Shown one piece after another: positions 5,348-10,363 of a stretch of 32,000 nucleotides of DNA (its first letter is position 1; every line of letters starts with the position of its first letter). The notes below the pieces were generated by a model. The model searched no databases, was not told the origin of the DNA, and saw only the letters and a program-made list of their open reading frames with translations. Made by a program: the position numbers and the translations under genes. This DNA is from an uncultured archaeon. GTDB lineage: Archaea; Asgardarchaeota; Thorarchaeia; Thorarchaeales; Thorarchaeaceae. Location of the stretch: positions 139,532-171,531 of the forward strand of contig CAZYLT010000004.1 in NCBI GenBank assembly GCA_964648855.1, written 5' to 3'.

Positions 5348-5769
5348 TAGACACATTACCCTACTCATTTGTTTTTATTAGCATTGTCACAGGACGAAAG
5401 TACCAGAGTCATTCTTTGATTCAATCAGATGGCGACAGCGACATGTTCAAAAGGAATAATGACTGAATGGCCGGCAGGACTGACTCGACCAATATCGATT
5501 AGGTCCACAAAATCATCAAATCATAAAAGCCGTGGAAAACCACCGGCAAATATCGAGTACATGTGGAATAGTTATCATTACTCATAACTTGAGATTATTA
5601 TCATCATATACTCATCACATTACGATTATCACAAACACACGTCAGAAATGCTACGAAATCGTTTCCAAGCGAAGTTAGGTCAAATAGGCCCGAGCAGTCT
5701 TACTCGTAGAAGAAGAATCACATGTGAGTGAACTCGGTACAAGGTGGGGAGAACGGCACACACAAGGAG

Positions 5770-7044
5770 ATGTGCATAAAAATAGGTGCAGGTGACTTTG
5801 ACTCGAGTACTGCAAAATACGTAATTCGAGCAAAGATTGAGATTGACGGAGTAGTAGACAAACCCGACGTTATCGGTGCAGTCTTTGGACAAACTGAGGG
5901 CTTACTAGGAGAAGACCTCGATTTAAGAGAACTTCAGCGTACTGGGCGAATTGGCAGGATACAAATCGCTATCAAGTCAAAAGGAGGCAGTAGCAGGGGA
6001 GAGGTAGTTATACCTGTTTCTCTGAACAAGACAGCAACTGCAATACTGGCAGCAGCGTTAGAAACTGTGGATCGAGTAGGCCCCTGCTCTGCAAAAGTAA
6101 CTCTTCAGAAGCTGGAGGATATTAGAGGAGCAAAACGAAGAAGGGTAGTGAGTAGAGCCATATCCATTCTTAAGGGCTGGGAGGAAGAAATTGCCCCTGG
6201 AACTGAGGAAATCACTTCAGCCGTATCCAAAGGGAGAAGACGAACTGTGGCAAAATACGGGCCGGATAAGCTGCCTGCAGGTCCGGATTTCTCCAAAGCT
6301 GATGAAATTATCATAGTGGAGGGGCGTGCGGATGTCATTAATCTCTTGAAGAGCGGCATTACAAACACAGTCGCAGTAGAAGGGACAAATATCCCAAGGT
6401 CGATTTCCAGTCTAACCAAAGAGAAGGACAAGAAGGTTGTGGCCTTTCTAGATGGTGACAGGGGTGGCGATTTGATCCTCCGTGAGTTGATGCAAGTCGC
6501 AGACGTAGATTTCATAGCTCGAGCCCCAGAGGGGAAGGAAGTTGAGAATCTGACTCATAGAGAGATTACCAAGGCGTTACAGGCCCAAATTCCAGCAGGC
6601 GAAGCCTTGTCCATTGTGAGCAAAAAACCCTCAAAGGAGCCAGAGAAAGCAAAATCGGTTTCTAAAGAGAGAAAGAAACCAGCAAAGACCGCTTCCAAAC
6701 CCGAGAGGCGAGTGCGACGAACTAGACGCGAATCCAAACCCACTAAGCCACGAGCATCTGTGGATACAGAGTATATTAAAAAATTGGACGATTTGAAAGA
6801 ATCATTCAAGGCAGTTATCTACGATGAGAATAAGGATGTAATCGAAGAATGTGGGGTAGCTGAACTTGCCAAGAAACTTGAATCGATGGACAAAATATCG
6901 ACAATCTTGTTTGACGGGGTCGTAACACAGAGAATCGTAGATAAAGCAGAGGAAAAAGGTGCAGAACTGATCATTGCAGCTGCCATATCCGACATTGAGA
7001 ACAAGCCAAAACAGATGACAATTCTAACATATGAAGACCTGTAG
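5770..7044 (+). CDS. dnaG: Archaeal DnaG (TOPRIM, exosome-associated DnaG-like protein)
   Basis: KYVIRA...GVVDKPDVIGAVFGQTEGLLG, IIVEGRADV, FLDGDRGG, DGVVTQR. Start uncertain (ORF open from 5728). Confidence 0.95.
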   Translation: MCIKIGAGDFDSSTAKYVIRAKIEIDGVVDKPDVIGAVFGQTEGLLGEDLDLRELQRTGRIGRIQIAIKSKGGSSRGEVVIPVSLNKTATAILAAALETVDRVGPCSAKVTLQKLEDIRGAKRRRVVSRAISILKGWEEEIAPGTEEITSAVSKGRRRTVAKYGPDKLPAGPDFSKADEIIIVEGRADVINLLKSGITNTVAVEGTNIPRSISSLTKEKDKKVVAFLDGDRGGDLILRELMQVADVDFIARAPEGKEVENLTHREITKALQAQIPAGEALSIVSKKPSKEPEKAKSVSKERKKPAKTASKPERRVRRTRRESKPTKPRASVDTEYIKKLDDLKESFKAVIYDENKDVIEECGVAELAKKLESMDKISTILFDGVVTQRIVDKAEEKGAELIIAAAISDIENKPKQMTILTYEDL

Positions 7045-7221: not shown

Positions 7222-7665
7222 ATGACAAAAGTATTCTCAACAACCCTAAATAGGACAGATAAGGCAAAAATTCACGAAATAGGAATTAACGGGTCTCAGA
7301 AAGTGGATGTAGTCCCTCCACCAATGATGGCAGACCATGAAGGAACTACGAGTCCTCATCATCTTTTCCTTGCATCTGTTGGCGGTTGTGTTAACCTGAT
7401 TTTTGAAATAGCTCTGGAGCGCGCTAGACTCGAACTCATGGATTTAGAATCAACAATAATGGGAAATTATGAAACAGAGGAAGATACCCAAAGGAGTTAC
7501 TTCTCATCAATTGAACTTGAAACAACTGTCACCGTTCCTGAAGGCACATCGGAGAGTAAACTAGAGAGGCTATTCAACGTCGCCCAGGAAAATTGCCCGA
7601 TAGGCAACTGTCTGATTGGTTCTTGTGTGAAATTGATTACAAGATTGAATGTTGTCTTCGGTTGA
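7222..7665 (+). CDS. OsmC/Ohr family protein
   Basis: SPHHLFLASVGGC and AQENCPI: the two conserved Cys of the family. Confidence 0.85.
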   Translation: MTKVFSTTLNRTDKAKIHEIGINGSQKVDVVPPPMMADHEGTTSPHHLFLASVGGCVNLIFEIALERARLELMDLESTIMGNYETEEDTQRSYFSSIELETTVTVPEGTSESKLERLFNVAQENCPIGNCLIGSCVKLITRLNVVFG

Positions 7666-7780
7666 CTGACTCAAGACACTCATTTAGAGGGGCTATGCCC
7701 CTTCCTTACTCATTTTTCAAGCAAACAAGAAACGAAATAAACTGTGTATTACTCACAGTTAATTCTATCAACTCGCAGAC

Positions 7781-9250
7781 ATGATTTGGAAGAAACATAC
7801 TTCGGAGTCTGAGAGATTGTCCTCACTCATCAAGGAAATTGAATCCACAAGGGACTTACGACCAGTAAGAGATCCATTCCAAAAGATAATAGGACAACAG
7901 AAAGCAATATCGCTCGTAAAATCCGCAGTAGCACAGCGACGACATATTCTTCTTTGTGGCGTTCCTGGAATTGGAAAATCTATGATTGCAAAGGCTGCAC
8001 AGTCATTGCTTCCCCTGGCAGAAACAGAGGTTTACATTCAGGAGAACAGAGCCCATCCTGAACGTCCACAGGTTTTCATCTCGAAATCAGATGACTCTAG
8101 AATTCAACGGTCCTCATCCTCGCCTGTCCACCAGTCATTCATCAGGCCAGAAGACTTGCCATTCGAAATAGCAGTCAAGATGGGTCATCGTTGTCCAAGA
8201 TGCAAAGCATTAAGCTTACCAGAACAGAAAATCTGCATGGACTGCGGAAGTCCAAAGCGAAGCATATGGCAATCCTCCGATTCATACCAAGGTCTTCTTC
8301 ATGCATTGGATGTCATTTCTGAGCCCGCTCTTGAAACGATCACGACTGTAGACACTATCGGTGGAATCGAGTATCAGACCAGCTACAGGCGTAGCGAAAG
8401 TCTCTCCATTACAGTAACTCGTACACCGGTTTCCGAGAATTCTGATGAGGCTACTCCAGTGGCCTCACAGAACTCAAGACTACTGATATCTCGCGATACG
8501 AATCGTTTTGTTTGTGTTAGTGGTAGAAGCCCTGCCGAGCTTCTAGGTGATGTGAAACATGATCCATATGGTGCTGCAGAAGATTTGGCAAAAGCCCCCT
8601 ATGAACGTGTAATTCCTGGGGCCATTCACGAAGCTCATGAAGGAATATTATACGTTGACGAATTGGCTGCGTTAGGGGAATATCAGAAACATCTTCTAAC
8701 GGCGATGCAGGACAGATATTATCCAATACTAGGTCACAATCCGCATAGCTCAGGCGCATCGATTCGAGTAGATGCAGTGCCTTGCAACTTCATTCTCTTT
8801 GCCTCTTGTAACCCCGAAGACATTGAACAGATAATCCCCCCGCTTCGCTCCAGAATACGCGGTTATGGCTATGAAATAATGCTGAATGCTACAATGGAAC
8901 AGAGCTCTGAAAACACATCCGAGATAATCAGGTTTGCAGCACAAACAATTTACGAGGATGGTCGCATCCCCCACATTTCTAAGGACGGACTACATGCACT
9001 TATTGATGTGGCAAGTGATATCGCATACCATATTGATGGTCAGAAGGACGCACTCACCCTTCGTCTTAGAGAGCTGGGTGGAGTAATCCGTGTCGCAGGA
9101 GATCTCACCGTTCAAGCTGATGAAGAGTTGATTAGCTCAACTCAAGTTGAAGAGGCAAGGGAGATAGTCTTCGGTTTAGAAGGCCATATGTCTTCCACAA
9201 GGCTTTCTACTGCAAAACAAACCGAGCCTTACGGAGACTATTTCTTTTAA
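7781..9250 (+). CDS. LonB-type AAA+ ATPase lacking the protease domain and TM segments, with Zn-ribbon insert
   Basis: IIGQ, Walker A GVPGIGKS, LLGDVKHDPYG, GAIHEAHEGILYVDE (Walker B), PLRSRI, LTLRLRELGG. CPRC/CMDC insert. Ends before any Ser-Lys protease domain. Confidence 0.85.
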   Translation: MIWKKHTSESERLSSLIKEIESTRDLRPVRDPFQKIIGQQKAISLVKSAVAQRRHILLCGVPGIGKSMIAKAAQSLLPLAETEVYIQENRAHPERPQVFISKSDDSRIQRSSSSPVHQSFIRPEDLPFEIAVKMGHRCPRCKALSLPEQKICMDCGSPKRSIWQSSDSYQGLLHALDVISEPALETITTVDTIGGIEYQTSYRRSESLSITVTRTPVSENSDEATPVASQNSRLLISRDTNRFVCVSGRSPAELLGDVKHDPYGAAEDLAKAPYERVIPGAIHEAHEGILYVDELAALGEYQKHLLTAMQDRYYPILGHNPHSSGASIRVDAVPCNFILFASCNPEDIEQIIPPLRSRIRGYGYEIMLNATMEQSSENTSEIIRFAAQTIYEDGRIPHISKDGLHALIDVASDIAYHIDGQKDALTLRLRELGGVIRVAGDLTVQADEELISSTQVEEAREIVFGLEGHMSSTRLSTAKQTEPYGDYFF

Positions 9251-9277
9251 CCGACCGTTGAAGTCCTTGGTGTTACA

Positions 9278-10363
9278 GTGAAAGTCCGCCGTTATCTGAA
9301 GGATGGAAAAGTCAAGATCAAGCTGGAGTCTCTTGATGACCTTTGGCACTTGTACAATGTCATCTCTCCCAATGACATAGTCATCTCCAGAACAAGTCGG
9401 AGAGTACGTATTGGAAATGATGATGCTAGGAAACAAGAGAGTATCCGGAAGACCATGGTTTTGAAAATACAGGTCGAAGATGTTGCTTTTCACTCATTCT
9501 CCAATCGCGTCCGCATCAAAGGCACTATCCTGGAAGGTCCGGAGGACCTAGTTAGCATTGGATCCTATCATACATTCAATATGGAGGTTGGAAACAGTCT
9601 CACCATAATAAAGGAACATTGGCCTAAGTTTGCATTGAAACGCCTAAAGGAGGCAGAAAATGCGAAAGTAAGTCCTCTTGCATTGATTATAACCATTGAA
9701 GACGGCTCTGCAGAGATTTTCCTCGCTGCAGACTTCGGGATAAGAGAAGCCGTTAGCATCACTACCAGCATATCCCGAAAGAGAGGTAGTCAAAAGGCCC
9801 ATGATGCCACCATGAGGGAGTTTTATGGCGATGTTACCATGGCTGTTCGTTCGCAGCTTGAGCAAAATAAGCCCAATATAGTTGTAATTGCAGGACCTGG
9901 GTTTGTGAAAGATCATTTCAATGACTATCTTCAAGACTCTGGCATTCCAAATCTTCCTCCGATTATGGTGGAGAGCACAAATACGACGGGCATTCCCGGA
10001 GCAAAAGAGATTCTGTATCGTGGAGTCATCTCCAAAGCTGTTCAGGGAATAAAACTAGAAAAAGAAACACAACTCATAGAAGAAATCTTGGAAAATGTGG
10101 GTAAGGGCAATGGACTTGGAGTCTATGGCCCGGATGATGTTCAACGCGCTGTACAATATGGCGCTGTAGAAGAATTACTGATCACCGACAAGAAATTGCG
10201 TGAAGGAACCGAGAAAGAACGCCGGCGAATGGATCAGCTGATTCGGGATACAGAGAAAACTCGTGGAAACTTCCACATTGTATCAACCGAACACCCGGCT
10301 GGAGATCAGCTTGAAAATCTTGGCGGAATTGCTGCTCTTCTCCGCTTCCCCATCGGTGTCTAA
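9278..10363 (+). CDS. pelA: Pelota/Dom34 ribosome rescue factor
   Basis: ESLDDLWHLYNVI, GSYHT, IAGPGFVK, YG..V..A...GAVEELLITD, GGIAALLRFP. Confidence 0.97.
   Translation: MKVRRYLKDGKVKIKLESLDDLWHLYNVISPNDIVISRTSRRVRIGNDDARKQESIRKTMVLKIQVEDVAFHSFSNRVRIKGTILEGPEDLVSIGSYHTFNMEVGNSLTIIKEHWPKFALKRLKEAENAKVSPLALIITIEDGSAEIFLAADFGIREAVSITTSISRKRGSQKAHDATMREFYGDVTMAVRSQLEQNKPNIVVIAGPGFVKDHFNDYLQDSGIPNLPPIMVESTNTTGIPGAKEILYRGVISKAVQGIKLEKETQLIEEILENVGKGNGLGVYGPDDVQRAVQYGAVEELLITDKKLREGTEKERRRMDQLIRDTEKTRGNFHIVSTEHPAGDQLENLGGIAALLRFPIGV

Follow-up and report, generated by a model that had tools for sequence, protein, structure and literature searches.

Can the motor of a Lon protease that has lost its own protease domain serve the proteasome instead? 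The question is raised by a locus in a 32,000-nucleotide (nt) stretch of DNA from an uncultured Thorarchaeial archaeon (assembly GCA_964648855.1, contig CAZYLT010000004.1, positions 139,532 to 171,531 of the forward strand), which was analysed as a whole and is called the window below; coordinates count from its first letter. The open reading frame (ORF) at 7781-9250 encodes a soluble AAA+ ATPase that is derived from the archaeal protease LonB, carries a zinc ribbon and has no protease. An earlier sequence-only reading had proposed that this ATPase uses the 20S core particle in place of a protease of its own, perhaps in ribosome quality control. Our own proposal is close to the first part of that idea: a Lon-derived unfoldase that would dock on the 20S proteasome and feed it, beside PAN and Cdc48. 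We consider it about equally likely to be right or wrong.

The gene and the conserved motifs of its motor are the following.

7781-9250, forward strand: gene of the LonB-like AAA+ ATPase, 489 amino acids, soluble, without a protease domain
7958-7981, forward strand: Walker A, GVPGIGKS, residues 60-67; G60, P62, G63, G65 and K66 invariant in a 68-sequence alignment
8558-8572, forward strand: pore-loop-1 motif HDPYG, residues 260-264; H260, D261, P262, Y263 and G264 each at least 90% conserved in that alignment
8645-8662, forward strand: Walker B, ILYVDE, residues 289-294; D293 and E294 nearly invariant in that alignment
8843-8875, forward strand: LonB signature LRSRIRGYGYE, residues 355-365; R356, the putative arginine finger, G363 and Y364 invariant

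The frame closes with the stop codon at 9248-9250. Gene callers choose an alternative TTG start at 7817, 12 codons later, which gives a protein of 477 residues. A Pfam search of the protein returned AAA+ P-loop families only and did not find Lon_C, the S16 Ser-Lys protease domain. The NCBIfam LonB model TIGR00764 matched with an E-value of 1.9e-89, covering model positions 5-83 and 169-407 of 608; for the whole protein it scored 300.9 bits, short of the curated cut-off of 516.6. From these gaps in coverage it follows that the protein has neither the membrane insert nor the S16 protease part. Intact Walker motifs, an arginine finger, LonB signatures and the lack of a Ser-Lys protease domain had all been noticed in the sequence-only reading, and these observations hold: every motif is present and conserved across the 68 sequences.

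An AlphaFold2 model built with the family alignment as input had a mean predicted local distance difference test score (pLDDT) of 86.8. Its best solved structural match is LonB of T. onnurineus (3k1j, Foldseek E 2.3e-33), which is also matched in a profile hidden Markov model comparison with an E-value of 3.3e-123; the isolated ATPase domain of the same protein (4zpx) gave a template modelling score of 0.87 on the target. In the alignment to 3k1j, Y263 falls on the aromatic pore-loop Phe (HDPF) and the LRSRIRGYGYE block is identical. LonC proteases are the next-best structural matches (Foldseek E ~1e-13). The best relatives are Lon, LonC, ComM, MCM and Mg-chelatase-type AAA+ proteins, which places the ATPase outside the classical AAA clade. 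In summary, with archaeal LonB (TIGR00764, MEROPS S16; 3k1j, 4zpx) it shares the motor, including both Walker motifs, the LonB signature, the aromatic pore loop and the lid. It differs from LonB in that it has a zinc-ribbon domain instead of the membrane hairpin, lacks the Ser-Lys protease, ends in a disordered tail of the hydrophobic-Tyr-X (HbYX) type and belongs to a separate clade.

The first of these differences concerns the segment where LonB crosses the membrane.

8036-8530, forward strand: insertion domain, residues 86-250, aligned in place of the LonB transmembrane hairpin; beta-rich, no fold assigned
8192-8245, forward strand: Cys4 zinc ribbon CPRC-x10-CMDC, residues 138-155; C138, C141, C152 and C155 invariant in sets of 68 and 35 sequences

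No 19-residue window of the protein reaches a mean Kyte-Doolittle hydropathy of 1.6, and the maximum is 1.16; canonical Asgard LonBs show two segments above 2.7 on the same scale at about residues 118-160. The two transmembrane helices that LonB carries between Walker A and Walker B are hence missing, and the ribbon that the sequence-only reading had located there is real in the sense that its four cysteines do not vary. As placed by the alignment to 3k1j, rather than by a measurement on the model, the zinc-ribbon insert would replace the membrane hairpin at what is the entry face of the ring in LonB. Modelled alone, it shows a helix and a sheet of three to four strands besides the ribbon (pLDDT 76.9). 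A Foldseek search of this model against the PDB gave nothing at E <= 0.001, and the best VIA-align match had a Z of 5.1, with PAS-like sheets at ~4. These values lie within the noise, and a PAS-like or any other fold was therefore not assigned.

At the other end of the protein, the chain emerges from the motor at the point at which the protease domain follows in LonB. By the 3k1j alignment and the known layout of LonB, this would be the exit face of the ring, to which a peptidase ring would be apposed. What follows the motor there is short.

9200-9235, forward strand: polar, variable, disordered linker, residues 474-485; positions -7 to -30 carry low information
9236-9247, forward strand: tail D-Y-F-F, residues 486-489, HbYX-like or Y-Phi-like, with Tyr at P3 and Phe at P2

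The pLDDT falls below 50 over residues 474-489, which suggests that the tail is disordered, and the linker varies in length as well as in sequence, as would be expected of a flexible C-terminal segment. The protein terminates in ...PYGDYFF. Among its 120 closest homologues, which are 49-87% identical and labelled Thorarchaeia, all end in Y-[F/Y]-[F/L]: P3 is always Tyr, P2 is Phe in 112 and Tyr in 8, P1 is Phe in 109 and Leu in 11, and P4 is Asp in 104, Ser in 14 and Asn in 2. The last four residues are therefore nearly invariant, while about 20 positions before them vary freely. In the working definition of Forouzan et al. (2012), an HbYX tail has a small or hydrophobic residue at -3 and Phe or Tyr at -2 (PMC3493965). 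A stricter rule was derived for the human 20S particle, the Y-Phi rule, under which Tyr is required at P3 and Phe at P2 is at least as good as Tyr and 2-3 times more potent (PMC8907193). The Thorarchaeial tail, with its invariant P3 Tyr and its Phe or Tyr at P2, conforms to it.

Tails of this positional pattern recur far beyond the Thorarchaeia. We surveyed 400 Asgard genomes, whose GTDB families are numbered here with f-codes (f1 is the family of the window), and a sample of 401 Thermoplasmatota genomes. Full-length protease-less orthologues were found in 80 of 85 genomes of f1, 11 of 12 of f13, 4 of 5 of f15 and all 6 of f16; the remaining Asgard families have canonical LonB (~650 residues) or none. 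About 150 of the 401 Thermoplasmatota genomes carry a full-length orthologue, often alongside canonical LonB. Further members come from Korarchaeota, from Anstonellales and Micrarchaeota metagenome-assembled genomes (MAGs; DPANN) and from the cultured Aciduliprofundum boonei (WP_008084136.1). A contig-level locus search was swamped by generic P-loop matches, and only 7 of its 80 loci were relevant.

In all 35 Thermoplasmatota loci that were read, the protein ends in [S/A/G/M/I]-[Y/F]-X with a free last residue (the tails include SYE, SYQ, AYQ, GYQ, GYE, GYG, MFH, MFS, MFF, IYG and IYN). Proteins of f16 end in LYG, those of f15 in RYG and the Korarchaeota member in YFA. The sequences thus differ between clades while the positional pattern of a small or hydrophobic residue at -3 and Phe or Tyr at -2 is kept, which matches the definition of Forouzan et al. 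On this evidence the terminal DYFF is more than a chance match, and the weight of the argument comes from its conservation at the exact C-terminus across phyla and not from any single match. The expectation that orthologues would retain a terminal Hb-[Y/F]-X was borne out even in clades whose tails look very different. A PIP box, the PCNA-binding motif QxxLxxFF, was also considered for the terminal Phe pair and dismissed, because positions -4 and -5 are Gly, Arg or Asp and not hydrophobic, there is no conserved Gln, and other clades end in LYG or GYQ. Thermoplasmatota proteins (loci L157-L186) have in addition a second conserved aromatic motif (YNYWN, YYFWNEH or YNYYN) 8-10 residues before the HbYX-type end, and f13 proteins (L053-L061), which lack the HbYX extension, stop at that motif (..NLWNG).

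A maximum-likelihood tree of 73 sequences (quick search, unrooted) puts 46 of 47 zinc-ribbon protease-less forms, the window protein included, on one side of a split with a Shimodaira-Hasegawa-like approximate likelihood ratio support (SH-aLRT) of 95. The other side holds the canonical LonBs and one long-branch protease-less form, P0131. The protease-less proteins form an old and widespread archaeal family distinct from canonical LonB. The aromatic tail is probably ancestral to it, as it is present on each deep branch of the tree. The nearest protein-atlas clusters are named 'LonB like ATP-ase no protease domain' (scores 0.98-0.99), and the family has the properties of that label: LonB-type ATPases of ~440-520 residues in which a Cys4 ribbon is inserted and the protease is missing, grouped in one clade. 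The name tells us that annotators know that the family exists. Full-text searches of the literature found no paper on it, and the paper on the ProEnd HbYX database makes no mention of Lon. As far as we could find, the family is unstudied, though named in databases.

If the tail is a proteasome ligand, a 20S particle has to be at hand. The assembly of the window's own genome, which is 94.6% complete, contains four 20S genes (PF00227), two of them with the alpha N-terminal signature, which corresponds to two alpha and two beta subunits, so the core particle that the sequence-only reading had called for is encoded. PAN of this genome ends in MYG and its two Cdc48 proteins in GYV and GYI. Four other genomes with the ATPase family have 20S genes as well. 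The Lys of the conserved IEKI motif, which we take to be K66 in T. acidophilum numbering, is retained in the 20S alpha subunit of the window's genome.

A second requirement is that no Lon peptidase competes for the role of partner. Neither Lon_C nor a ChlI-type Lon-like domain was found anywhere in the 94.6% complete assembly; this genome has no stand-alone Lon protease domain. Strong Lon_C matches, and with them canonical LonB, are absent from f1, f15 and f16 and are kept in f13. An HbYX-type tail where canonical LonB is absent suits a motor that uses another peptidase, in a comparison of only four lineages. A separate Lon protease as the partner of the ATPase was rejected on these grounds, the weak Lon_C matches elsewhere in the family lying in unrelated ORFs. 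These are ORFs of about 800 residues with a weakly Lon_C-like C-terminal half (E ~1e-10, model positions 108-200), found in 15 of 85 f1 genomes, 18 of 19 of f14 and 3 of 3 of f4 and absent from the genome of the window (G320, G325-G331, G343 and others have them; e.g. G329:C10:38170-38481). They appear to encode a different Lon-related protein.

The most likely explanation, in our view, is then as follows. The ATPase would be a soluble, ring-forming AAA+ unfoldase that descended from the archaeal membrane protease LonB and retained its motor with the Walker motifs, arginine finger, sensor residues and aromatic pore loop. The two transmembrane helices have been lost, and a zinc-ribbon/beta domain sits instead on what would be the face of substrate entry. 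On the presumed exit face, the S16 protease domain has given way to a flexible linker of ~15-25 residues and a [small/hydrophobic]-[Tyr/Phe]-X tail. Six such tails would insert into the pockets between the 20S alpha subunits, as the tails of PAN, Cdc48 and AMA do, and the Lon-type motor would thread unfolded substrates into the 20S core rather than into a protease chamber of its own, with the zinc-ribbon crown selecting substrates or adaptors. The domain architecture, the family membership, the conservation of the tail, the gene order and the lack of a Lon protease in this genome are observed; hexamer formation, docking, gate opening and the substrates are inferred. The weakest step concerns the clients: the gene order, with dnaG and the exosome across phyla and pelota in Thorarchaeia, suggests that they come from RNA or translation surveillance.

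Our confidence in this proposal stays where it is because tails of this motif class are not unique to the proteasome and because the docking itself is deduced. Several observations weigh against it. The three-residue HbYX rule is loose and fits 132 of the 2799 ORFs of the same genome (4.7%); it also fits the ribosomal stalk proteins aP1 and aP0, with the ends GLGSLFG and GLGGLFG; stalk-protein tails bind translation factors, not the proteasome. Some tails of the family do not fit. In f13 the protein ends in WNG or WNS within an aromatic motif ..[F/Y]N[L/F/Y/M]WN[G/S], the Anstonellales cluster P0127 and the unassigned cluster P0131 end in DVR, a Micrarchaeota MAG has HIF, and the RYG and DYI tails carry a non-hydrophobic residue at -3. 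Two clusters combine a degenerate Walker B with no tail at all. With PAN and two Cdc48 proteins in the genome, another cap is not obviously needed, and no proteasome gene adjoins the ATPase in any locus read, be it the window or the f15 and f16 loci. To our knowledge, all proven proteasomal ATPases (PAN/Rpt, Cdc48, AMA and Mpa) are of the classical AAA clade and none is of the Lon (HCLR) clade. As to the two clusters without a tail, metagenomic P0160 and P0175, their Walker B reads LYLPDL or LYISDL, the pore loop is eroded and the linker is missing too; this sub-branch is probably an ATPase-dead offshoot of the protease-less family.

The neighbourhood of the gene gives rise to a different explanation. 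Two genes lie upstream of the ATPase in the window.

5728-7044, forward strand: dnaG (archaeal Toprim/DnaG, exosome cap subunit; Pfam Toprim_4/Toprim), the upstream neighbour across phyla
7222-7665, forward strand: OsmC-like gene (Pfam OsmC) between dnaG and the ATPase, found in 9 of 30 f1 loci (the window and 8 others) and in some genera only

By tblastn, dnaG precedes the ATPase gene in 26 of 30 loci of f1, 6 of 7 of f13 and 35 of 35 of Thermoplasmatota, and it is near only 1 of 15 canonical LonB genes. The gene-order counts leave out the metagenome-only members P0128, P0130 and P0155. Of the two conserved neighbours of the ATPase, dnaG is older and more deeply conserved than pelota, and the OsmC-like gene seems to have been inserted, in certain lineages only, into a dnaG-ATPase pair that was already there. 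An exception among the canonical proteins is L156 (G044:C309, f9), a canonical-type LonB in a long ORF of ~790 residues with dnaG ~2 kb downstream.

Accordingly, the motor could work together with DnaG and the RNA exosome in RNA decay, remodelling ribonucleoproteins, stripping proteins from them or handing over substrates, with a tail that docks on DnaG, Csl4 or the exosome ring. The dnaG linkage is the oldest and widest signal in the gene order, and DnaG, a cap subunit of the exosome, binds poly(A) RNA (PMC3672285, PMC4227792). Yet f15 and f16 keep the ATPase and its RYG or LYG tail with no dnaG nearby, the pore loop and the motor are of the polypeptide-translocase type, and no exosome interaction through a C-terminal Hb-Y-X tail is known. 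As the whole explanation, we therefore hold a role at the exosome to be unlikely. It is compatible with a proteasome cap, and the two ideas are not mutually exclusive. Proteasome genes in the archaeal exosome neighbourhood have long been noted and remain unexplained (PMC2588523). The genome of the window has this classical arrangement (G000:C24, L004 1408-3563), in the order proteasome alpha, SBDS, Rrp4, and the position of the ATPase gene beside the exosome gene dnaG counts, in this light, in favour of the proteasome cap. Where dnaG is lacking, other genes stand next to the ATPase. A class I S-adenosylmethionine-dependent methyltransferase lies 3' of it in L051 and L052 (f15 and f16), and XPB is among the neighbours of the f15 and f16 loci; in the f16 locus a tRNA-splicing endonuclease lies 5' of the ATPase, and the hydrogenase maturation protease HycI and a LigT-type 2'-5' RNA ligase are nearby. 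RNA-processing genes thus recur around the ATPase even in the absence of dnaG and pelota.

A further possibility is that the ATPase is a stand-alone chaperone or unfoldase whose tail serves self-assembly or autoregulation, for instance by stabilising the hexamer or plugging its own pore. The Lon protease domain drives ring formation, and its loss may therefore need compensation. The second aromatic motif (YNYWN/YYFWNEH), which is terminal in f13, hints at more than one contact, and the clades that do not fit HbYX would be accommodated. Against this, an intramolecular contact needs no motif at the exact free C-terminus, a free last residue being typical of docking anchored by the carboxylate, and the length and variability of the linker point to a contact with some other particle. 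We think that this explanation, too, would probably fail.

Downstream, the ATPase gene is followed at once by a gene for ribosome rescue.

9269-9272, forward strand: Shine-Dalgarno-like GGTG, 5 nt before the pelota start; G-x-T-G invariant in 12 aligned intergenic regions
9278-10363, forward strand: pelota (aPelota/Dom34 homologue), 361 amino acids, GTG start; TIGR00111 304.4 bits against a cut-off of 177.65; eRF1_1/2/3 domains

The sequence-only reading had the ATPase ending 27 nt before pelota, and the GTG at 9278 confirms this; across the loci that share this arrangement the spacing is 27-40 nt with both genes in the same orientation. The GGTG element implies that the two genes are co-transcribed. 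A sigma-70/intrinsic-terminator scan, which is uninformative for an archaeon, showed no terminator-like site between them. Just after the OsmC stop, at 7688-7716, a GC-rich hairpin (AGGGGC-TAT-GCCCCT) is followed by a T-rich run and resembles a transcript end, for which reason the ATPase-pelota pair probably has a promoter of its own.

Pelota lies directly 3' of the ATPase in 31 of 31 loci, namely all 30 of f1 and the Asgard MAG locus L067 (labelled 'Promethearchaeota'), so the linkage extends beyond a single genome; it occurs in none of the 49 loci read elsewhere (14 Asgard, 34 Thermoplasmatota and 1 Micrarchaeota). The coupling to ribosome rescue that had been suggested is thus conceivable in Thorarchaeia, where the genes look co-transcribed, and does not extend to the family, in which the arrangement is a lineage-specific gene order. 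With the adjacency limited to one Asgard family, we regard the coupling as weakly supported. Least probable of all is that the tail mimics the ribosomal stalk, recruiting aEF1A, ABCE1 or pelota to stalled ribosomes or competing for them there, while the motor extracts nascent chains or factors with no proteasome docking: it would account for pelota and its conserved GGTG in the 30 f1 loci and L067, and the stalk proteins of the same genome likewise have a C-terminal Hb-F-X, and stalk tails bind ABCE1 and aEF1A (PMC6125642, PMC6791870), but the tail pattern is kept in the 49 loci that lack pelota, the ATPase tail has neither the GLGxLFG core nor the acidic run of the stalk, and half of the Thorarchaeial tails are SRDYFF and contain no Gly.

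Returning to the proteasome cap, a much broader version of this proposal can be formulated. The Lon-lineage unfoldase would be an ancient further class of archaeal 20S cap, older than the divergence of Thermoplasmatota and Asgard archaea, with gene order tying it to the exosome (dnaG) and, among Thorarchaeia, also to pelota. It would play in archaea a part like that of ribosome-associated quality control in eukaryotes, and its tail, resembling the eukaryotic Y-Phi type, would serve to pass the products of failed translation or of RNA decay on to the proteasome. We see this as improbable.

Several known systems come close to the one proposed here. PAN, Cdc48/VAT and AMA (PMC3493965, PMC4192671) are likewise AAA+ unfoldases with a flexible [small/hydrophobic]-[Y/F]-X end in genomes that encode the 20S particle. 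Unlike them, the ATPase has a motor of the Lon (HCLR) lineage and neither an OB/coiled-coil nor a Cdc48 N domain, and its 20S binding is a prediction. A P3 Tyr and a P2 Phe or Tyr are common to the tails preferred by the human 20S particle, of the Rpt5 and PA200/Blm10 type (PMC8907193), and to the Thorarchaeial tail; the latter, in contrast to the eukaryotic ones, belongs to an archaeal protein and has a bulky P1 (Phe or Leu), and the likeness is one of sequence. Lon relatives in which one activity is lost or uncoupled are also known, namely MtaLonC, whose ATPase-like domain is inactive, and Lon-like-Ms (PMC3391209, PMC4864567). In these variants the protease remains and ATP-driven unfolding has been given up; the family described here is the reverse case, with the motor kept and the protease gone. 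ClpX/ClpP and HslU/HslV similarly pair an HCLR-clade unfoldase with a separately encoded self-compartmentalised peptidase, which for the ATPase is a predicted partner. ClpX docks through its IGF loops and HslU through a C-terminal segment on HslV; the ATPase, by contrast, would use HbYX-type tails on the 20S alpha ring.

If the proposal is correct, the ATPase would unite two protease systems that are usually regarded as distinct, a Lon motor that has exchanged its built-in protease for the 20S particle, and would show how modular the pairing of motors and peptidases is. Since the family includes the cultured A. boonei, the idea is directly testable. Three Asgard families retain no Lon relative other than the ATPase, and one may ask what takes over from membrane LonB in them. 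With dnaG as its fixed neighbour, the family provides a new handle on the link between exosome and proteasome genes in archaea, and the Thorarchaeial linkage to pelota points to a candidate route by which nascent chains from rescued ribosomes could be disposed of.

Also of note are two other ORFs of ~250 residues in the genome of the window, G000:C11:40938-41678 and G000:C17:8728-9510, which end in the canonical HbYX tripeptides MYL and LYG and could encode proteasome assembly factors or activators of the PbaA/PbaB type.

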